IMG/VR virus record: IMGVR_UViG_2744054912_000003
Location: 1 to 45,289 of that record
DNA: 45,289 bases
Strand: one strand, 5' to 3'
Source: a virus
Taxonomy: Duplodnaviria > Heunggongvirae > Uroviricota > Caudoviricetes
The position numbers and the translations under genes were made by a program. The notes beneath the pieces are model-generated. The model saw only the letters and a program-made list of their open reading frames with translations, made no database searches and was not told the DNA's origin. Positions 2,475 through 21,043 of this stretch are shown piece by piece. The first letter of the stretch is position 1; each line of letters begins with the position of its first letter.

Positions 2475-3518
2475 TTAACCTATTGCTACTGGTTTTAACA
2501 AACCAGCATCAAGTAGCTTGCGAGTTAACCACTGCTGGCCTTTACCCGTTAATTGGGGCGTCAGCCGTATCTGGTAGCCATTTTCATCATCCAGCACCAC
2601 TTCTTTCACCGTGAAATACCCGGCGTTAATGTACTGCTGGCGCGGTACGTTTTTGCGCGCACCAAAAGCCATGAGAATGCCGTTCTGGCGCAACCATGAG
2701 AAAAGGGCGTTTTGCTTAAGTCCAACGACCTTTGCAAAGTTCCCGATCAGGATTCCATTAGCCGCTGATACCCGGTCGGCAAAATCGACTTTAGGGGCTG
2801 CGGCCACCAGCTGTTGTTCCAACTGCATTTTCTGTTCTGCCAACTCGGCAGCCAGGCGTAGAGCGTCTGGTAATGTTTGGGGGATCGATGGGGCAGGGGA
2901 GTTTGCCTGCTGCAATTCTTCCAGTTTGTCGATCAGCGAACGGCGGACTGCTTTTGACTCGCGCGCGGCGACTCGCAGGGCTTGTTTGTAGGTCATGGTT
3001 ATGACAACCATAGGCGTACCGCCACCTGGCGGCACGGTTGCACTTTTTGTGTAACCGTCCTCACCTTCTAATTCGTCGAGTATTTTTTTGATGAATTTGT
3101 TGTTCCGAACCTCTGGTTCCCCACATAACTTACGCGCTTCATTGACCATCTTTAACAGCGTCTGGCTGTCGATTGTGTCTCCAGTGTTGGAGATAACATT
3201 CACAGCTGGTGATGGCGTAGCTGAAGCAACAGATGCTGGTTTTTTAACATTCAAATTATTACTGGTCATTCTATGTGCCTCCTTTCTCATTTCTGCTGCC
3301 ACCGTTGCGTAACGTAGACGTCCTTGTTCAATCAAATAATCCCTGATCTCGGCTATCAGTAGCCTGTTGATCACAGCCTTATCTGTTCGGGTATAAAAAC
3401 GTCTGGTTATCATGAAATAGTTGGCAATTGCGCCGGGGATCTCCCGTGTCGGCATACAGGCAGTATGCAGGGCGATCGCTTCGGCTATGTCATTACGGGT
3501 GACGAGAGGTTTTTTCAT
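2475..3518 (-). CDS. ant1: Antirepressor Ant1 (Ant2 expected from an in-frame internal start)
   Basis: 347 aa; C-terminal antirepressor domain paralogous to KilA; lies downstream of a 73-aa ORF and an operator, as in the P1 immI region. Confidence 0.65.
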   Translation of the reverse strand: MKKPLVTRNDIAEAIALHTACMPTREIPGAIANYFMITRRFYTRTDKAVINRLLIAEIRDYLIEQGRLRYATVAAEMRKEAHRMTSNNLNVKKPASVASATPSPAVNVISNTGDTIDSQTLLKMVNEARKLCGEPEVRNNKFIKKILDELEGEDGYTKSATVPPGGGTPMVVITMTYKQALRVAARESKAVRRSLIDKLEELQQANSPAPSIPQTLPDALRLAAELAEQKMQLEQQLVAAAPKVDFADRVSAANGILIGNFAKVVGLKQNALFSWLRQNGILMAFGARKNVPRQQYINAGYFTVKEVVLDDENGYQIRLTPQLTGKGQQWLTRKLLDAGLLKPVAIG

Positions 3519-3736
3519 AAAACCCCCTGAACGTCGGCAGAGAAGGGGAGGTTCCAGTAACTAAGTGAATTGCGCGAGTTAGTTGAAAAACGGGCAGTAA
3601 AAATGCAGGGGCCATCAGGCAATTGAGAGCGTGCTTCGTCTTCTGTTGCTGCGATGACGAAGTGATAGTGGTGTTTTTTGCAGGAATAGAAACGCCAGAT
3701 GAATTCTTGGCGTGCGCAAGGATTGGCATTAACCAT
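3515..3736 (-). CDS. icd: Icd-like small protein, 73 aa, overlapping the ant start
   Basis: 73-aa ORF whose stop overlaps the ant start (translational coupling geometry); Shine-Dalgarno GAGG just upstream. Size and position match P1 icd as I recall. Confidence 0.5.
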   Translation of the reverse strand: MVNANPCARQEFIWRFYSCKKHHYHFVIAATEDEARSQLPDGPCIFTARFSTNSRNSLSYWNLPFSADVQGVL

Positions 3737-3789
3737 AGTTACGGCCTCGTAAGTTGATAAACAACCTGCGACCCGCTGCTAAACAGGTG

Positions 3790-3880
3790 GCAGGACGTGA
3801 CGGGGTTAGCAGACTGGCACTTACGAAACCAGCAGGCCGAAGCCTCCCCATCACGCCCCACCATAATTCGGGCGTAACGT
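3790..3880 (-). ncRNA. c4: c4-like antisense repressor RNA (approximate location)
   Basis: On the minus strand, UCUGCUAA and CGUAAGU (plus coordinates about 3802-3826) are complementary to UUAGCAG and ACUUACG located 40-80 nt further downstream, next to the icd ribosome-binding site. This is the two-site pairing expected for c4. Confidence 0.35.
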
Positions 3881-4048
3881 GGTTTACGGACACAAAAATA
3901 CCGCAATATCGGAAATCTGCGGTTGTCCGCGTAAGTATTCAGGCTGCTAAACCCGGTCGCAGAATTTGCTACGACGGCGAAACTATAAGCCTGAACGATT
4001 AAAAGGTCAATATGATGCAAAAAGATAGCATTCGCGACTTAAAAATAC

Positions 4049-4065
4049 AAATTTATTAGAGCAGA
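4049..4065 (-). promoter_or_regulatory. C1 operator-like site overlapping a sigma70-like promoter (Op51/P51-like) for the c4-icd-ant transcript
   Basis: Reverse complement TCTGCTCTAATAAATTT matches the operator consensus at 15 of 17; it is embedded in TTGCAC-N17-ATAAAT on the minus strand. Confidence 0.55.
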
Positions 4066-4346
4066 TTAGTGTCGTGCAATAGATATATTATTTGTGATGA
4101 AAAATAATGCAGATGGATATTGTAACTTTAAGATGGATATCAATAGTCGATACATAAATTAAGTTAGCAATAAACTATTAACTTAAGAAATAATGCAGAT
4201 GGTGAACTTGTCTCTGACTTTTCAGCTATACACAATAAGTTAGGGATAGCTTATAAAAAGTTGATTAATTGATATAAGTCAATGGGAGTATTCTTGTTTA
4301 CTTTCCGTTCTCGTGGTAACTTCTCGCCGGTTTTTGTTTTTCTGGG

Positions 4347-4868
4347 ATGATTCTTATGTCTAAAAAGTATACTTTATGCGCTCTTGTTGTATCTGCAATT
4401 CTTCTTTCTGGGTGTCAATCTAGCGGTGCTGATTATGCTGCCGATGTTTATGATACCGCTCAATTGAATTCGAAGCAGGAAACAAAGACAGTCAATATTA
4501 TCTCTGTGCTTCCAGCTAAAGTGAAAGTTGATAATAAAGCTAATAAAGAAGCGGCACAGACATTTGGTGCGGTACTGGGAGCTGTTGCTGGGGGCGTTGC
4601 CGGTTATAATGTTAAAGGCACATCGACACTGGGTGCTGTAGCTGGCGGTACTGGTGGTGCGGCTCTTGGTGCAGCGGCTGGTTCTTTGGTTAGTGATAAA
4701 ACAATTGTTGAAGGTGTTTCACTGACTTATAAAGAAGGAACTAAGGTGTTCACTTCAACTCAAGTTGGTAAAGCATGCCAGTTTACAACGGGGCTTGCTG
4801 TGCTTATTTCAACTAAAGATAATGAAACTCGAATTCAGCCAAATGCTACTTGTCCAGAAAAGAAATAA
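4347..4868 (+). CDS. Lipoprotein with glycine-zipper region
   Basis: Signal peptide with lipobox LLSGC; Gly/Ala-rich segment GAVLGAVAGGVAGY...GAVAGGTGGAALGAAAG typical of glycine-zipper outer-membrane lipoproteins. Confidence 0.7.
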   Translation: MILMSKKYTLCALVVSAILLSGCQSSGADYAADVYDTAQLNSKQETKTVNIISVLPAKVKVDNKANKEAAQTFGAVLGAVAGGVAGYNVKGTSTLGAVAGGTGGAALGAAAGSLVSDKTIVEGVSLTYKEGTKVFTSTQVGKACQFTTGLAVLISTKDNETRIQPNATCPEKK

Positions 4869-4871
4869 TTT

Positions 4872-5411
4872 ATGAATAAAATTATTTTATTTCTAATCTT
4901 TTCTACGTTTAGTGTAGGCACTGCCTTGGCTAACTCGTTGCAAAGTCAAATTGCTGCTATTGCTCAAGCGGAAAATGAAGGGCGAGCTAAAGAGCAGCAA
5001 GCTGAGGATGCCAGAAAAGAACTTATTCGCCAACAAGCACAAGCTGAACGTATTAGAAGAGAAAAAGCAGCATCTGCCGCTGCTGCACGCGAAAAACAGC
5101 GTGTTGCTGCAGAAAATGAACGTAGAGCGAAACGAGAAGCCGAGCTAGCAAATGACAAGAAGCGAGATCAAGCTTATGAGGATGAGCTTCGCAAGCTGCA
5201 ACTCGAAAGCATGAAACTCGAACTGCAAGCAAAAGCGGCTCGTGTCCAGCGAGAAAACGATTTTATAGAGCAGGAGTTGAAGGAGAGAGCAGCTAAGACA
5301 GATGTAATTCAGTCTGAGGCTGATGCAAATAGAAATATTTCTACAGGAAGTAAAGATTTACTGCAAAGCGAAGGAAAAGCTAGAGAGAAGAAAGCTAGCA
5401 GTTGGTGGTAG
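4872..5411 (+). CDS. Secreted charged coiled-coil protein with TolA-like Ala/Glu/Lys/Arg repeats
   Basis: N-terminal signal peptide (FSVGTALA-NS) followed by a long stretch such as AQAERIRREKAASAAAAREKQRVAAENERRAKREAE. Confidence 0.7.
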   Translation: MNKIILFLIFSTFSVGTALANSLQSQIAAIAQAENEGRAKEQQAEDARKELIRQQAQAERIRREKAASAAAAREKQRVAAENERRAKREAELANDKKRDQAYEDELRKLQLESMKLELQAKAARVQRENDFIEQELKERAAKTDVIQSEADANRNISTGSKDLLQSEGKAREKKASSWW

Positions 5412-14098: not shown

Positions 14099-14533
14099 AT
14101 GTCTGACGTCTCAACAAACCTCTATAAGAGTCAGTTGTTGGACTATTACTATCAGCGGCGCGCTGAATCGTCCATTAACAAAGGCTCTCGATTTTTAATC
14201 AGCAAGGCCGTTTTCGGTACCAGTTCACTGGTTACTAAGAAAGGAGATGGCACTTATGAGATTGGAGAACTGCCAAAGGCTTTCGATCTGGCAGAACTGA
14301 CCAGTCAATTTTGCACCATCAACCTCGTCCCAACCTACTCAGGCGGGATAATAACTGTCCGAATGGACCTTGATCAAAGCCAGTTGCAGGAAGGGAAAAA
14401 CTACCCATTCAACACTCTGGTTGTTCTGGATAACGAGAACAAGCCAATCGCCATTATTTGTGTCCAGGAAGACTCGCTGTATGTGGGCAAAACATATACC
14501 GCAGTTATGGCCATAAACACGACTACAGCATAA
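14099..14533 (+). CDS. Tail-fibre-associated structural protein (position of P1 gene R)
   Basis: 144-aa ORF immediately upstream of the tail fibre gene. Confidence 0.5.
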
Positions 14534-14544
14534 GGATATGCTTG

Positions 14545-17500
14545 ATGAATGACGTTACAGTTGTCACATCGGTTACTTACCCATCACCCGAGTCGTTGGC
14601 TCTGGTGGCTGATGTGCAATACCACGAACCATATCTGTCAGCCGCGCTAAACCGAAAATTCAGGGGGATTGTTGACCCGGGATTTTATGCCGGTTTCTTA
14701 CCTAAGCCTGGCGGTGGGATGAACCTGTTAATCACCTCAGTGGATGGTGATAAAACCGCAGGCGCGGCGTCGGTGGATATTGGTGAATTCTACCAGGTAA
14801 CTATTCAGCAACGTAAGGATATTTCTCTTGCACTTAGTGCAGGCAAGAAATATGCAATTGTGCTGAAGGGAAGATACCTCCTTGGAGAAGATACCTATCA
14901 GGTGAATACCGCGTCACATATTCATGCGGCTGAATTTGTTTCCAGAACCTATACCGATTCATATCAGTTAGGAGATGGGGAGCTGCTTGTTTGTACGGTG
15001 AATATCCCTGCTGGTGTATCTGCCATTACCCAGGAGATGATTGATACATCCAAGCGTATCAACCGCACGATCGGCATTGATATTTCAGACTCTGTAACCA
15101 GTACCAGAAGTGATGTTGCTGCGAGTTCGCTGGCAGTTAAAAAAGCCTACGATCTGGCTAAAAGCAAGTATACGGCGCAGGATGCAAGCACAACACAAAA
15201 GGGATTAGTTCAGCTCAGTAGCGCAACTAACAGCGACAGCGAAACAATGGCGGCTACCCCTAAAGCCGTTAAGTCTGTAAAAGAGCTGGCTGATACCAAA
15301 GCGCCAATAGAAAGCCCGAGTCTGACAGGAACGCCAACCGCGCCGACGGCAGCGCAAGGTACAAACAGCACGCAGATCGCAAATACAGCCTTTGTTAAGG
15401 CAGCTATAACGGCACTTATCAACGGTGCACCTGGCACACTGGATACGCTTAAAGAAATAGCTGCTGCGATCAATAACGACCCGAATTTCAGCACAACTAT
15501 CAACAATGCTCTGGCTCTTAAAGCTCCTTTAGCAAGTCCTGCATTAACGGGAATACCTACTGCGCCTACCGCTGCACAGGGTACGAATAACACGCAGATT
15601 GCTACGACCGCTTATGTAAGAGCTGCTATCTCTGCATTGGTCGGCTCATCACCTGAAGCTCTTGATACTCTGAATGAGCTTGCAGCAGCACTGGGCAATG
15701 ACCCGAACTTTGCGACAACAATGACAAATGCGCTGGCAGGCAAACAGCCTCTGGATGCAACTTTAACCGCGCTCGCTGCCCTTGCGACTGGTGCAAACAA
15801 ACTGCCTTATTTCACTGGTAAGGATACGGTAGCGCAGACTGATTTAACGTCAGTCGGTCGCGATATTCTGGCTAAAACAAGCACACTGGCCGTTATCCAA
15901 TACCTTGGTTTAAGAGAACTCGGTACCAGCGGTGAAAAGATCCCCCTGTTGAGCACGGCTAACACATGGAGTGCGCGCCAGACTTTCAACGGCGGGATCA
16001 CCGGGGCGCTGACAGGGAACGCCGACACCGCGACGAAATTGAAAACAGCACGCACGATTGGCGGTGTGGCATTTGATGGCTCGGCCAATATCAATCTTCC
16101 AGGTGTAAATACAACAGGTAACCAGAACACCACGGGGAATGCTGCTACCGCGACAAAACTTGCGACGGCAAGAAACATCAACGGTGTTAAGTTTGATGGC
16201 TCAGGCGATATCAACATTAATACATTGGTATCTCGTGGCCGAGTTACGGCGTTAAGCGGCTCTACTCAAGGCACTGCTGGCATTCAAATGTACGAGGCGT
16301 ACAACAATAGCTACCCGACCACGTATGGCAACGTATTGCACATGAAAGGTGCGAGTGCTGCTGGTGAGGGCGAGTTGCTTATTGGCTGGAGTGGTACGAG
16401 CGGTGCACATGCGCCAGTTTTCATTCGCTCCCGAAGAGATAACACAGATGCGGCATGGTCTGAGTGGGCACAGGTCTATACATCGAAAGACTCCATACCG
16501 GGCGTAAATACAACGGGCAACCAGAACACAACAGGAAATGCGGCGTCTGCCACGAAATTACAAACGGCAAGAACCATTGGTGGCGTTTCATTTAATGGTA
16601 CCGCAAACATCGACCTGCCAGGTGTGAATAAAACAGGTAATCAGAGCACTACTGGCAATGCTGCAACTGCAACAAAACTGCAAACAGCACGCACAATAGG
16701 CGGCGTATCATTCGATGGCTCCGCCAATATCAATCTGCCGGGTGTAAACATTGCTGGTAACCAGAACACAACCGGTAATGCAGCTACGGCTACCAAATTG
16801 CTAACAGCGCGTACCATTAATGGGGTTTCATTTGACGGTTCTGCGAATATTTCACTGTCACCAGCAAATATTGGTTGCCCGGCATCTCCTACTGGTTGGC
16901 TTGTAACAGGTGATAATGGAGCTTCAATAACAACAGAGCAATTAGTGACTCTGCTACGAGATAATGGTGCTTTTAATGCAAAGGCATGGATAGCGCGTTG
17001 TGCCTGGGCGTATGCAAATAGTGCATCCATACCAGACAGCGAAACAGGATGCGGCATTATTCCACTGGCTGGCGCAGTTATTGAGGTATTTAATAACGGC
17101 AGTAGCTCAAACAATTATACGATTCGTATAACAACGGCAACAACGACAGGTGTCTCTGGCGCACTCACTAATGCGGAGTTTGTCTATGTGTTTAACGGGA
17201 CGAGCTATTCACCAGGATGGCGCAGAGCGTATAACACTAAAAACAAGCCTACTGCGGCTGATGTCGGAGCTTTACCACTATCTGGAGGAGCGTTAACTGG
17301 CGGATTAACTGCTGCTGGCGAGATTATTTCCAAATCGGCGAATGGTCTGCGCATTGCCTACGGAAACTACGGATTCTTTATCCGAAACGATGGTTCAAAC
17401 ACATATTTCATGTTGACCGATTCGGGTAACAGCCTAGGAACCTATAATAGGTTAAGGCCGCTTATCATTAACAATGCCAATGGTGCTGTTACGATCGGTA

Positions 17501-18564
17501 ATGGACTCAATGTTACTGGCGGCATCAATGGTAGTTTGAACGGTAATGCTGCAACTGCTACAAAACTTCAGACTGCAAGAAAAATATCCGGTGTTCCATT
17601 TGATGGTTCTACTGATATCACTTTAACCGCCGCGCATGTGGCTGCTTTTGCCAGAAGGGCAACGGATACATATGCCGATGCGGATGGTGGCGTTCCCTGG
17701 AATGCCGAATCAGGCGCTTACAATGTCACCCGCTCTGGCGACAGCTATATTCTGGTTAACTTCTATACCGGAGTCGGAAGTTGCCGGACATTGCAGATGA
17801 AGGCGCATTACAGAAATGGTGGTCTGTTCTACCGTTCTTCAAGAGACGGTTATGGTTTTGAAGAAGACTGGGCAGAAGTTTATACCTCGAAAAATCTTCC
17901 ACCAGAAAGCTACCCAGTCGGCGCACCAATCCCGTGGCCATCAGATACCGTTCCGTCTGGTTATGCCCTGATGCAGGGGCAGACTTTTGACAAATCTGCT
18001 TACCCGAAACTTGCAGCCGCTTATCCGTCAGGCGTGATCCCTGATATGCGTGGCTGGACGATTAAGGGCAAACCTGCCAGTGGTCGTGCCGTATTGTCTC
18101 AGGAACAGGACGGCATTAAATCGCACACCCACAGCGCCAGCGCATCCAGTACGGATTTGGGGACGAAAACCACATCGTCGTTTGATTACGGTACTAAACC
18201 AACGAATAACACAGGTGCACATACCCACAATGTATCTGGTACTGCAAATAGTGCTGGCGCACATACTCATACCGTTCCATTAAGGAGACCAAACAGTGGA
18301 GGTATGAATTTCGACTGGCTTGATGGTTCATCAAGTGGCACGGTCGTGGGGAATGGAACAGTGCCTTCTTCTGGTGCACACACCCACTCAGTATCAGGCA
18401 CTGCTGCAAGTGCAGGGGCGCATGCACATACAGTTGGTATTGGCGCTCATACGCACTCTGTTGCGATTGGTTCACATGGACATACCATCACCGTTAATGC
18501 TGCTGGTAACGCGGAAAACACCGTTAAAAACATCGCATTTAATTATATTGTGAGGCTTGCATAA
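14545..18564 (+). CDS. Long tail fibre protein (start moved to the ATG at 14545 with AAGGA ribosome-binding site)
   Basis: 1339 aa; repeated ~39-aa modules GN(Q/A)[31 protein letters not shown]; C-terminal His-rich HxH array ([39 protein letters not shown]) typical of T4 gp37, Mu S and P1 S receptor-binding tips. Confidence 0.85.
16498..16854. repeat. Three tandem ~117-bp repeat units within the tail fibre gene (related copies at about 16009-16215 and 17527-17630)
   Basis: Seen directly in DNA and in the protein repeat PGVN-TGNQ-TTGNAA-ATKL-TARTI-GVSF-G-ANI-L. Confidence 0.85.
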
Positions 18565-19181
18565 TGGCATTCAGAATGAGTGAACAATCACGTACAGTAA
18601 AAATTTATAACCTGCTGGCCGGAACTAATGAGTTTATTGGTGAAGATGACGCATATATTCCACCTCATACAGGGCTGCCAGCTAATTCTACAGATATCGC
18701 CCCACCGGAAATTCCTACTGGCTTTGTGGCAGTTTTCAACAGTGAAAATGAATCGTGGAATATTGTTGAAGACCATCGTGGTAAAACGGTCTATGAGGTG
18801 GCATCGGGGGACGCGTTGTTTATTTCTGAACCCGGACCGCTACCAGAGAATGTCACCTGGTTGTCGCCAGCAGGGGAGTATCAGAAGTGGGACGGCGTAT
18901 CCTGGGTGAAGGATGAGGAAGCAGAAAAACTGTTTCGGATACGGGAAGCGGAAGAGAAAAAGGCAAGGTTGATCCAGGAGGCAACAGATAACATCGCAAT
19001 TCTGCAGGACGCAGTTAATCTTGAAATAGCAACAAACGAGGAAAATTCACAACTGGACTCCTGGAGAAAATACAGAGTATTAGTGAGTCGAATTGATACC
19101 AGTACAGCTCCGGATATCGTATGGCCAGAGCTGATGAATCAGGGTTATGTGCGGGAGGACGAGCAGATAACTTCAGACTGA
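18564..19181 (+). CDS. Tail fibre assembly protein (Tfa; P1 gene U position)
   Basis: ATG overlaps the tail fibre stop (TAATG); N-terminus [58 protein letters not shown] is the conserved Tfa N-domain seen in Mu, lambdoid and e14 phages. Confidence 0.85.
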
Positions 19182-19708
19182 AATTTAGTGATGAATGTTG
19201 AATCATCAGGAATATCATGCAATACCAATGCATGAGCACCTATTGTGACATTGTTTCCTATACGCACTTTGCCACCAAGAATGGTGGCATTACAACCAAT
19301 GGTCACATTATCTCCTATAACAATATCCATGTCATTAAATTCCCCGCGAAGTCCAATAGTTACTCCGGGCTTAATTGAACAATTTTCACCGATTGTGACT
19401 TTGTGAGCGATAACAACGCCATTGAGATAAGATATGTCAAACCCTTTCCCTATATTTACCGTTAAGGGAACGGTTACATTGTATTTGTCAAGAATGAAGC
19501 GTTCTATTTTCCCTGCAACCTTTCGCCTGTATCCGCCTTTATCAAAAAGATATTTTGATATGCGCCACCAAAATAAATAACGAACTCTTCTATGTTTTAT
19601 TGCGCGAACAATTGCTTTTCGCCAAGAGAAAGGACGCTCGCTACCAATTACTTCATAGTGAATACAGTCTTTAAGTTCATTAATAGTCATATTTTTATTG
19701 TTCAGCAT
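19145..19708 (-). CDS. Hexapeptide-repeat (left-handed beta-helix) acyl/acetyltransferase
   Basis: Repeated [LIV]-G-x-x-x-x hexads ([16 protein letters not shown]...[34 protein letters not shown]); low GC compared with flanking genes; 3' end overlaps the convergent tfa by 37 bp. Confidence 0.8.
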
Positions 19709-19769
19709 AATATAATAATGTGACCAATTATTATAATAACTTTAATGGATTATTTCTACTGATTATCCA

Positions 19770-20700
19770 GTGTGTCTGGCGGTTTTCGGTATTATCTGCC
19801 GGAACCATGCCTCATCCAGCGGGTATTTGCTGCCTGGGTTGTCCGGTTTTTCGGTCACTCCCTCAGGCCTCCGATTCTGGTCACGGCGGGTTTGTTATTT
19901 TCCAGTGCGTCGGATGACCACTGCCGCAACTTCTGCACCATTTTTTGGGAGCGGGATTTCACTCCTACGCAACCTGCGCTTTTTGTGCAGCCTGTTTTGC
20001 GTGCTATCCCGGATTTTTGAGTTTCATTCTGCCTCCATGATCCTATCAGGGACGACACCAATCCACTTAAGCACGATGCCAAGACCATCAAGGAGCTGCG
20101 TCAGAGGCCCAGCACAATGTTCTGCTTGATCGGCATAGGGGGGAGCACAAGGGCTGCGCCCCTGCCACACCACCCGGCATGCGGGTCCGTACCGGGCTTC
20201 CCCGGCTTCTGACGCAATGCCCTGTCAAGAGTCATATCTTCTGGCTTTCCTTCTCGTTCGGCCCTTCGTCGGAGTCCTGACTACTACGGCCTCTGCTGAC
20301 TTCTCGCTCCGTCTTACGACGTTGCCCTTTCAGGCATGAGGCGAGAACTCCCCAGGTAAGAACGCGATCCTTCCCCGCACAACCGTCGGATCTGCGCGAC
20401 TTCGACTTGACCACGAAAGCTTCGCAGTGATGTGCCTGCTCGCCTTGCTCCATCGCGCCTCATATCCGATTCTCGTTCATCGGCTCACGGGTTCATTCCG
20501 TGCTTCCTCCCCACGCCCGGTCGCCCTCACGCAGTTGCACTTCATTTCGCTCGCTGTGGTCAGCTCGCGGGAGGGCTTTCACCTCCAAGATCGCGCCCAT
20601 GCTGGGCGCACACATTCTCCACGCTCTAAAGGACGTGGAGGATGTCAAGCAACATGACCGGTTGAGAAGTTACTTTGCATACCATTACCTCCTGACAACG
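19770..20700. other. GC-rich (visibly well above flanking DNA) ~0.9 kb region with no convincing ORF
   Basis: Only short overlapping ORFs in all frames and both strands; several perfect hairpins (GCGCCCA-TGC-TGGGCGC, CTCCACG-N10-CGTGGAG). Confidence 0.5.
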
Positions 20701-20713
20701 TAGGAGGGAACTT

Positions 20714-21043
20714 GTGCTTGACACACAGGAATTAGCTCCAGTTGCTATTGCGCTCCTGCTTTCAGTAATTGGTGGGATAGGCACGTTCCTGATGGATGTC
20801 CGAGATGGTCGCCAGTCTGGCAATTTGTTGGGATTGGTTACGGAGATCTTTGTTGCAGTGACAGCTGGCGCGGTGGCGTACCTATTGGGGCAACACGAGG
20901 GCTGGGAGTTATCAATTACGTACTTAATGGTAACGATAGCCAGCAATAACGGTCATGAGGTGATTTCAGGGATGAAACGAGTGAATATCGATAGCATTCT
21001 GAATGTTCTTACAAGTTTGGTGAAAAAGGGAGGTGGGAAATGA
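20714..21043 (+). CDS. lydA: Holin-like membrane protein (LydA-like), GTG start with AGGAGG ribosome-binding site
   Basis: 109 aa with hydrophobic helices; first gene of the operon that contains darA. Confidence 0.55.
   Translation: MLDTQELAPVAIALLLSVIGGIGTFLMDVRDGRQSGNLLGLVTEIFVAVTAGAVAYLLGQHEGWELSITYLMVTIASNNGHEVISGMKRVNIDSILNVLTSLVKKGGGK

Follow-up and report, generated by a model that had tools for sequence, protein, structure and literature searches.

The closest described counterparts of the element analysed here are the group II introns of class IIC, such as B.h.I1, O.i.I1, GsI-IIC and the IIC intron of Eubacterium rectale. With these it shares a small ribozyme bounded by GUGCG...AY, a short EBS1/IBS1 pairing and insertion just 3' of a DNA stem-loop, and its full-length relatives additionally share with them a CGC triad in a short domain V and an IEP that combines reverse transcriptase (RT) and maturase but has no endonuclease. 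It departs from the typical members of the class in that its IEP gene is missing and its domain V damaged, and also in its target, which is a rho-independent terminator in the typical introns and an IS609-type end followed by GGATGT in our case. Introns of this class are described as inserting after the stem-loops of terminators or after other inverted repeats (PMC1702495). One sublineage, the IIC-attC introns, is described as specialised on attC hairpins, and resembles the present case in that its target is a recombination hairpin that a different mobile element employs in the single-stranded state (PMC3001079); the target here differs in being the right-end hairpin of an IS200/IS605-family element, with neither an attC site nor an integron.

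Two further sets of elements provide a frame for comparison. For the Enterobacteriales, Leclercq and Cordaux (2012) report 111 group II intron fragments in 55 distinct copies, which their text reads as elements that died before proliferating (PMC3522654). The copy described below is like these in being an apparently inactive element of the kind that lies on plasmids, phages or islands, is usually single and leaves homing sites free; the survey lists no class C intron from E. coli, the class C entries being only Di.ze.I1 and So.gl.I1, and a search of its text showed no copy from a P1-like plasmid (PMC3522654). The trans-mobilised ORF-less introns of Thermosynechococcus likewise have a deletion in domain IV and no IEP gene, but they are described as retaining an intact core and as occurring in multiple copies, whereas our copy has a broken domain V and occupies a single locus (PMC2882425).

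The locus belongs to a 45,289-nt sequence of a member of the Caudoviricetes (IMG/VR record IMGVR_UViG_2744054912_000003), hereafter the window, in which positions 19770-20700 had drawn attention as a strongly GC-rich island without any ORF above about 120 codons, with overlapping short frames on both strands and several perfect hairpins. Each of these features is confirmed. The GC content of the island is 56.9%, as against 48.6% for the whole window (931-nt windows across it have a mean of 48.5% and a standard deviation of 4.9), the GC-rich stretch in the strict sense begins near 19776, and the sole block in the window that is richer in GC is a fragment of a Tn3-family transposase gene at about 43.3-44.4 kb. 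The longest stop-free frame among the six frames of 19770-20700 has 119 codons; windows of the same size have a median longest frame of 259.5 codons, and only 32 of the 444 fall at or below 130. The overlapping short ORFs of both strands are present in the list of open reading frames, and the hairpins are real: one is a 12/13-bp palindrome at 20612-20646 and the rest are helices of a group II intron. We consider it highly probable that the island is a composite scar, made up of three mobile or foreign remnants that all lie on the minus strand, and that it has no present function in the phage. Clear nucleotide matches to mobile elements or a gene fragment were recovered three times over, which was the outcome named in advance as the mark of a scar, and the suggestion of a decayed fragment of GC-rich mobile DNA is in essence upheld: the matches are to a tape-measure gene, to the right-end hairpin of IS609 and to a group IIC intron. 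The sources suggested for it, Tn21, Tn1721 or integrons, were wide of the mark.

The largest layer is an ORF-less (delta-ORF) remnant of a group IIC intron, 483 nt in length and with the form GUGCG...GAU, that occupies 20129-20611 on the minus strand and has by itself a GC content of 61.5%. A search of Rfam, one of the checks originally proposed, yielded minus-strand matches to two models of group II introns, each full-length and above its gathering threshold, RF02001 at 20530-20360 (96.9 bits against 32) and RF01998 at 20342-20261 (46.8 bits against 35), and the structure of group II intron domains I-III is hence recognisable. The other Rfam matches on the island amount to noise below E of about 1 (SpR20, lncRNA models and a c-di-GMP aptamer at 11.6 bits), and a match of IS009 at 19000-19105 was dismissed, as it scores 32 against a gathering threshold of 117 and falls inside the tail-fibre assembly gene. 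BLAST against complete E. coli genomes and plasmids supplied two informative comparators. The boundaries of the insertion can be read directly from the first, a P1-like plasmid of identical gene order, pMB17626_2 (L002), which matches window positions 20720-20612 and 20129-19700 contiguously, is without exactly the 483-nt segment and reads ...GGAGGATGT followed immediately by CAAGCAG. This plasmid represents the empty site and thereby sets the limits of the minus-strand intron at 20611 and 20129; removal of the 483 nt from the window would join the exons as ...GGAGAAUGU followed by CAAGCAG.... Both ends agree with the splice-boundary consensus GUGYG/AY, with GUGCG at 20611-20607 and ...CCGAU ending at 20129, and the copy combines a precise insertion with EBS1-IBS1 complementarity, as mobile group II introns do.

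A full-length version of the intron, with an annotated ltrA gene, is found on an E. coli chromosome (L001). It matches window positions 20639-20192 with 97.5% identity and no indels (the 5' 420 nt of the intron together with 28 nt of exon), and positions 20197-20126 with 94% identity (the 3' 68 nt of the intron). We assign the intron to class IIC because the 456-aa IEP of L001 (WP_000186915.1) contains only the Pfam domains RVT_1 and GIIM and no endonuclease domain; its best relatives in the PDB are the GsI-IIC RT (8e-129) and 7uim (3.5e-92). Domain V of L001, CCGCCCGGUGCGGACCCGCAUGCCGGGUGG, is of the short type with a CGC triad, and insertion immediately 3' of a DNA stem-loop, another feature of the class, is seen in the window and in the same arrangement in six other copies. 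Two other readings of these matches were rejected. A relationship to RmInt1 (class D) was suggested by matches in Sinorhizobium, but these are limited to 70 nt at the D5-D6 end, and the IEP resembles those of class C; and a plain 5' fragment of an intron is contradicted by the second blast segment, which shows that the 3' end is present and that the deletion is internal.

The domains can be followed along the minus strand. The domain I core, delimited by the alignment to RF02001, lies at 20360-20530 and includes the loop GGCACAUCACUGC; EBS1, ACAUC, in a domain I loop at 20433-20429, is complementary to an IBS1 of GAUGU, and 5' exons that end in GGATGT are found at L001, L002, L005, L006, L012 and L013. 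The IBS1 of the window copy is AAUGU, which forms four of the five pairs with EBS1. Domain II, the J2/3 linker and domain III follow at 20261-20342 according to the alignment to RF01998, with the linker, AGAAGUCAGCAGAGGCC, at 20304-20288. Domain IV is reduced to a stub at 20201-20260 that holds the start of the lost RT/maturase gene, namely an ATG at 20235-20233 and 15 codons (MTLDRALRQKPGKPG, compared with MTPDRTLRQKPGKPG in L001), from which a meaningless ORF of 44 aa continues (20101-20235). Domain VI can be placed at 20132-20166, where a bulged A at 20136 is a candidate for the branch point, based on a fold of the 3' 73 nt and the alignment of relatives; on alignment A1, with a hand-drawn structure that is out of register, it is 22-70% paired.

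The same comparison reveals how the intron was reduced. The two matches to L001 overlap on the hexamer GCCCGG at 20192-20197 on the minus strand, where the blastn segments meet, and this 6-nt microhomology identifies the window copy as an internal-deletion derivative. The junction, which falls within domain V, joins L001 position 3948 to 5293, such that about 1344 nt are gone: the RT/maturase gene, save for its 15 codons, as well as the initial two bases of domain V. Consistent with this, tblastn with the IEP finds no intron-encoded RT/maturase ORF in the window. The junction is common to all four of the other intron-bearing copies that were aligned (L008-L011), and among the matches listed it is confined to this locus.

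Domain V, at 20169-20200 on the minus strand, is the part of the catalytic core that is visibly damaged. It reads GGAAGCCCGGUACGG..., which can be parsed as AAGCCCGGU-ACG-GACC-CGC-AU-GCCGGGUGG, where the relatives have CCGCCCGGU-GCG-GACC-CGC-AU-GCCGGGUGG. Across six full-length relatives drawn from alpha-, beta- and gamma-proteobacteria, with IEP identities down to 63%, the domain is an invariant AACCGCCCGGUGCGGACCCGCAUGCCGGGUGGU save for one compensatory pair, C-G to U-A, in Polaromonas. All 13 pairs are formed in each of the six, whereas three of the 13 are broken in the window copy: the two basal pairs, one of which involves the leading base of the catalytic triad (CGC to AGC opposite G), and a pair beside the two-base bulge that is disrupted by a G-to-A change. 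The predicted minimum free energy fold of the domain absorbs the 2-nt bulge and collapses the upper helix, and the domain V/VI model RF00029 reaches 17.4 bits against a gathering threshold of 40; an intact domain V, as expected of a group II intron, is thus not present in this copy. The aligned sister copies, L008-L011, have the same changes in domain V, and decay among the sister copies is directly visible as extra lesions, with deletions of 2 nt or 6 nt in domain I and 1-nt deletions or scrambling in domain VI.

Given that the remnant has no maturase, that three of 13 domain V pairs are broken and that a full-length helper acting in trans is rare, we infer from these sequence features that it probably no longer splices efficiently or moves. 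The rarity of the helper can be gauged from matches to the intron sequence, which number 98 records in 97 of 5426 E. coli genomes; among the 60 of these 98 records that were listed, only two E. coli genomes have the full-length copy, and one of these has a split ltrA. The opposing view, in which it is a still-active, non-autonomous ORF-less IIC intron that depends on a maturase provided in trans for splicing and mobilisation, or acts as a free-standing hydrolytic ribozyme, has several points in its favour. Domains I-III and VI are intact, EBS1 and both splice-site consensuses are present, and the stub of domain IV around the IEP start codon is retained. The altered triad, AGC, is the sequence typical of IIA and IIB introns and works in other classes; taken with the intact domains and the indel-free 97.5% match to the full-length copy, it leaves room for residual hydrolysis or for rescue by an IEP in trans. 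ORF-less IIC-like ribozymes, termed HYER, have also been described; the window copy is ORF-less like these, yet its damaged domain V and the decay of its sisters point, as far as sequence can indicate activity, away from membership of that group. Trans-mobilised ORF-less introns are moreover on record in other bacteria (PMC2882425). We nonetheless consider continued activity improbable: the broken pairs affect an otherwise invariant domain whose predicted fold has lost the catalytic bulge, the indels of the sister copies fall in structured regions and are uncompensated, the delta-ORF junction occurs at one locus only among the matches listed, and the potential helper has the sparse distribution given above. 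The earlier suggestion of a structured non-coding RNA holds only for the history of the sequence. About half of the island is indeed derived from a ribozyme, but it has no protein gene, its domain V is damaged and it is accumulating indels. The remnant is a previously unannotated example of the known group II intron fragments.

Directly adjoining the decayed intron is the second layer, a palindromic hairpin of 35 nt at 20612-20646 on the minus strand (inverted repeat I3) that constitutes both its 5' exon and its target. The 5' arm, GACATCCTCCACG, extends from 20646 to 20634, the loop from 20633 to 20624 and the 3' arm, CGTGGAGAATGT, from 20623 to 20612; the last 5 nt of the hairpin are the IBS1, and the base that completes the palindrome, a C at 20128, lies beyond the intron. 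Folded with RNA parameters, the version in the window has a free energy of -20 kcal/mol (z = -7) and that of the intron-free allele -32.4 kcal/mol (z = -9). The last 31 nt of the intron-free allele, TCCACGTCCTTTAGGGCGTGGAGGATGTCAA, are identical at 30 of 31 positions to the terminal 31 nt of IS609, TCCACGTCCTTCAGGGCGTGGAGGATGTCAA, which comprise a hairpin and GGATGTCAA; the IS609 end used in this comparison is the sequence that follows tnpB in L001. IS609 (insQ) occurs in some 4900 of the 5426 E. coli genomes, and its homology halts at ...GGATGTCAA (TCAA) at many unrelated E. coli loci, which establishes this sequence as the right end of the element; the left end has a related hairpin. IS609 proper differs from what is found here: the window contains no similarity to TnpA or TnpB and no left end, and only the terminal hairpin resembling a right end represents the IS200/IS605 family.

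The 5' arm of the hairpin has been lengthened into a perfect 13-bp palindrome that begins GACATCC..., and this unit is also seen solo elsewhere. On F-like plasmids the perfect 36-nt palindrome stands alone, accompanied by a different shortened intron (L005), and it also stands alone between genes in Parasutterella muris (L014). As the GACATCC left boundary recurs in unrelated contexts, random truncation of an IS may be too simple an account of its origin. Neither of two other interpretations of the hairpin withstood scrutiny: it is not part of a tape-measure gene, since the sequence of L004 upstream of the shared part is unrelated, nor does it resemble a rho-independent terminator, as there is no T-run on either strand.

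The third layer, and the 3' exon of the intron, is a 353-nt piece of a tail tape-measure gene of a phage, disrupted by frameshifts, at 19776-20128 on the minus strand. It shows 74.7% nucleotide identity to positions 4001-4368 of L004, inside an annotated tape-measure CDS, and the similarity spans aa 713-840 of the 1016 aa that this gene encodes in a P2-like E. coli prophage, and begins exactly where the IS-like sequence stops. As the similarity detected by tblastn alternates between two frames and is interrupted by stops, there is no continuous tape-measure ORF and the segment is a fragment and a pseudogene. The corresponding fragment in L002 has a different set of frameshifts.

The same region bears on the proposal that the short ORFs of the island, up to 119 aa long, are real small proteins. 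ORFs of 65-119 aa do exist on both strands, and one record, AP027478.1, annotates two hypothetical proteins within the island. A search of Pfam gave no match for the five island ORFs tested, however, and the largest of the ORFs (19770-20129, plus strand) is antisense to the tape-measure pseudogene and, judging from the alignment, has the L002 indels within its span, while the remaining ones fall within the intron or antisense to it. About 35 plasmid records contain the entire island, with 96.7-100% identity, and nearly all of these have no annotated feature there. We accordingly attach almost no weight to the coding interpretation. The copies of the island are all filed under plasmids or chromosomes; a collection of phages, searched in both near and distant modes, matched only the LPdar flank of P1 and nothing in the island.

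The surroundings of the composite scar can be aligned to the P1 map, on which the annotated order is S-U-U'-Sv'-cin-lydC-LPdar-lydA. The S tail-fibre gene (14458-18564, plus strand) is followed in the window by a tail-fibre assembly gene (18564-19181, plus strand; Pfam Caudo_TAP). Convergent with the latter and overlapping it, and outside the island itself, is a gene for a hexapeptide-repeat acyltransferase of 187 aa (19145-19708, minus strand; 38% GC; Pfam Hexapep, E = 5e-14), annotated as 'serine acetyltransferase' in sister plasmids. Its promoter region is an AT-rich spacer with 22% GC (19709-19775, minus strand) that contains a sigma-70-like, promoter-like site, TAGAAA-17-TATAAT, from 19758 to 19730, recognised by its match to the consensus. 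On the far side of the island, P1 homology restarts at 20647, and the P1 late promoter LPdar (20667-20685, plus strand; -22 box AAGTTACTT, -10 TACCAT) precedes lydA (20714-21043, plus strand). The original remark that cin and the alternative tail-fibre segment are undetectable is borne out, as the window has no homologue of cin, U' or Sv'. Among U, U', Sv', cin and lydC of P1, only a U-type gene is detectable in the window, in which the sole lydC-like match is the lydA paralogue. The P1 inversion system for the C-segment, which consists of cin and paired cix sites flanking Sv/U, is likewise wanting in the window: the repeat that carries the cix sites in P1 is left as a single copy in the S gene, at 15895-16049. 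The island block and the acetyltransferase cassette stand where P1 has U'/Sv'/cin/lydC.

This arrangement is also the ground on which a regulatory role can be assessed. A long leader for the late operon, one of the roles initially suggested, is contradicted by the orientation of the intron, on the strand opposite to lydA, and by LPdar, which lies intact and identical to that of P1, by alignment and exact string match, 21 nt past the end of the island; it is further undercut by L002, which is without the intron, and by P1, which is without any island DNA. A broader version would have the island serve as a cis-regulatory spacer, i.e. a leader, terminator or insulator between the tail-fibre and LPdar operons or upstream of the acetyltransferase gene. 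Its position between convergent and divergent transcription units would suit such a role, as would two weak terminator-like sites on the plus strand (19834-19846 and 19974-19990) and the fold of the whole intron RNA, which is somewhat better than that of shuffled sequences (z = -2.1). Against this, two terminator-like sites are what shuffled sequences yield (1.5 expected), the 483-nt half of the island is dispensed with in L002, P1 uses the same LPdar with no island DNA, the AT-rich promoter-like site of the acetyltransferase gene is separate from the island and downstream of it, and the changes among copies are uncompensated indels and frameshifts. We therefore regard a spacer function as very unlikely.

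For the composite scar, we infer the following order of events. An IS609-like end abutting the tape-measure fragment, the acetyltransferase cassette and a different tail-fibre tip and assembly module would first have replaced U'/Sv'/cin/lydC in a P1-like ancestor, giving rise to the state now represented by L002. A IIC intron would then have retrohomed into the foot of the hairpin, after GGATGT, in one sub-lineage, and a microhomology-mediated deletion between two GCCCGG hexamers would have stripped it of its ORF. The single deleted copy would subsequently have been inherited by the approximately 35 plasmids that carry the island now. Precise loss of the intron by L002 could also account for the empty site, but is less economical. 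The retention of the island in many plasmids fits a neutral island in a lineage that expanded recently, without being proof of neutrality.

Apart from the scar itself, a pattern emerged in the target sites of the intron sublineage, every examined copy of which lies after a related short GC-rich hairpin and (A)GGATGT. At three independent loci the intron is directly downstream of tnpB: L001 and L012, the second E. coli locus, and L013 in Polaromonas. L001 is situated at the yedK locus, for which intron-free alleles (H200-H204) exist, and is the only one of the tnpB loci checked against intron-free copies of IS609, by which the right end of the IS was confirmed. L013, on Polaromonas plasmid 2, has compensatory changes in the stem, keeps GGATGT and contains two introns in tandem. 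Relatives in Cupriavidus and P. putida, with 63% IEP identity, follow classical terminators with a stem and a T-run. The point of insertion is 3 nt inside the IS end, which we take to be the junction of omega-RNA scaffold and guide in TnpB systems, and an intron between scaffold and guide would need to be spliced for a guide RNA to form. We advance, as a proposal whose chances we judge to be about even, that a IIC sublineage of E. coli and Polaromonas has switched its homing from terminators to the right-end hairpins of TnpB-bearing IS200/IS605 elements, inserting 3 nt inside them between omega-RNA scaffold and guide, so that the guide RNA would be regained only by splicing. A weaker addition to this proposal is that the delta-ORF copy of the P1-like plasmids might still be activated in trans. 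The literature that we searched, which is incomplete, holds nothing specific on a IIC intron tied to IS605 or TnpB, or on an intron in P1-like plasmids. If confirmed, this would be a second example, after IIC-attC, of the retargeting of IIC introns to the single-strand hairpins of another element, and, if true, it would be the group II counterpart of the conflict between group I IStrons and omega-RNA.

Together these results explain a gap of 0.9 kb that had stood unannotated in about 35 public P1-like (IncY-type) phage-plasmids. An apt annotation would be a group II intron remnant and a pseudogene, and the region is poor ground for the mining of new RNAs or small proteins. The homing-site pattern, which, if confirmed, suggests a conflict between intron and guide RNA in TnpB systems, alone may be worth pursuing further. 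For the phage the island matters little; in this lineage, the host-range switch formed by cin and the C-segment has given way to a tail-fibre module that is fixed, to an acetyltransferase gene and to junk.

The tail-fibre region of the window retains a trace of the inversion system of P1. Within the S gene, the stretch at 15895-16049 (4885-5039 in locus L003) corresponds to one copy of the inverted repeat on which P1 bears its cix sites, and both the partner copy and cin are missing; the tail-fibre gene is therefore frozen in one orientation. In the intron-free sister plasmid pMB17626_2, the tail-fibre gene is separated from the assembly gene by a gene for a macro-domain protein (4629-5531 of L002), which is absent from the window. 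Thus, the tail-fibre module is mosaic among these plasmids. The tail-fibre assembly gene on the plus strand is convergent with the acetyltransferase gene on the minus strand, with an overlap of 37 nt at 19145-19181. With 38% GC, falling to 22% in the 67 nt upstream, the acetyltransferase cassette stands out as markedly AT-rich, which suggests that it is a separately acquired moron.

A second and stronger GC-rich block, with GC content of up to 66%, occupies about 43.3-44.4 kb of the window and beyond. It codes for a Tn3-family transposase DDE domain (43740-45209, minus strand; Pfam E = 6e-156), and presumably belongs to a transposon of the resistance or cargo type that inserted into the phage-plasmid. 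Matches at the Rfam gathering level in the window are to the sok antitoxin RNA, belonging to an addiction module of the hok/sok type, and to the C4 antisense RNA of P1 immI along with its a1/b1 targets (296-470, 3783-3868 and 3936-3988, all on the minus strand).

Independent truncated copies of related group IIC introns occur in several E. coli plasmids, namely F-like plasmids of 52-168 kb, pUMNK88_K88 and an AAF/II plasmid (690-975 in the F-like L005, 2483-2717 in L006 and 3001-3400 in L007); these are mostly unannotated or labeled 'hypothetical protein'. In plasmid 2 of Polaromonas sp. JS666, two related IIC introns are arranged as a direct tandem (2510-4341 and 4342 onward in L013), the second beginning at the base immediately after the end of the first.

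The left boundary of a 36-nt palindrome, GACATCCTCCACG-N10-CGTGGAGGATGTC, is identical across three unrelated settings: the P1-like plasmid (window 20612-20646 plus 20128), F-like plasmids after a ccdB pseudogene (L005, 655-690) and intergenic DNA of Parasutterella muris (L014, 9176-9211), where no TnpB is found nearby. The palindrome could derive from an IS end or represent a REP-like unit.

The window remnant belongs to a IIC intron sublineage that is found directly downstream of tnpB at three independent loci, two from E. coli and one from Polaromonas. The target hairpins following tnpB lie at 3501-3531 in the chromosomal E. coli locus L001, about 2500-2530 in the second E. coli locus, L012, and about 2470-2510 in the Polaromonas plasmid locus L013, with the window counterpart at 20612-20646. 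For the chromosomal intron, the insertion point was confirmed to fall 3 nt inside the IS609 right end. Whereas insertion is tnpB-adjacent at these three loci, classical terminators precede the introns of the more distant relatives L015 and L016, which suggests that the sublineage is a retargeted IIC lineage, whose insertion would separate the guide of the omega-RNA from the scaffold.
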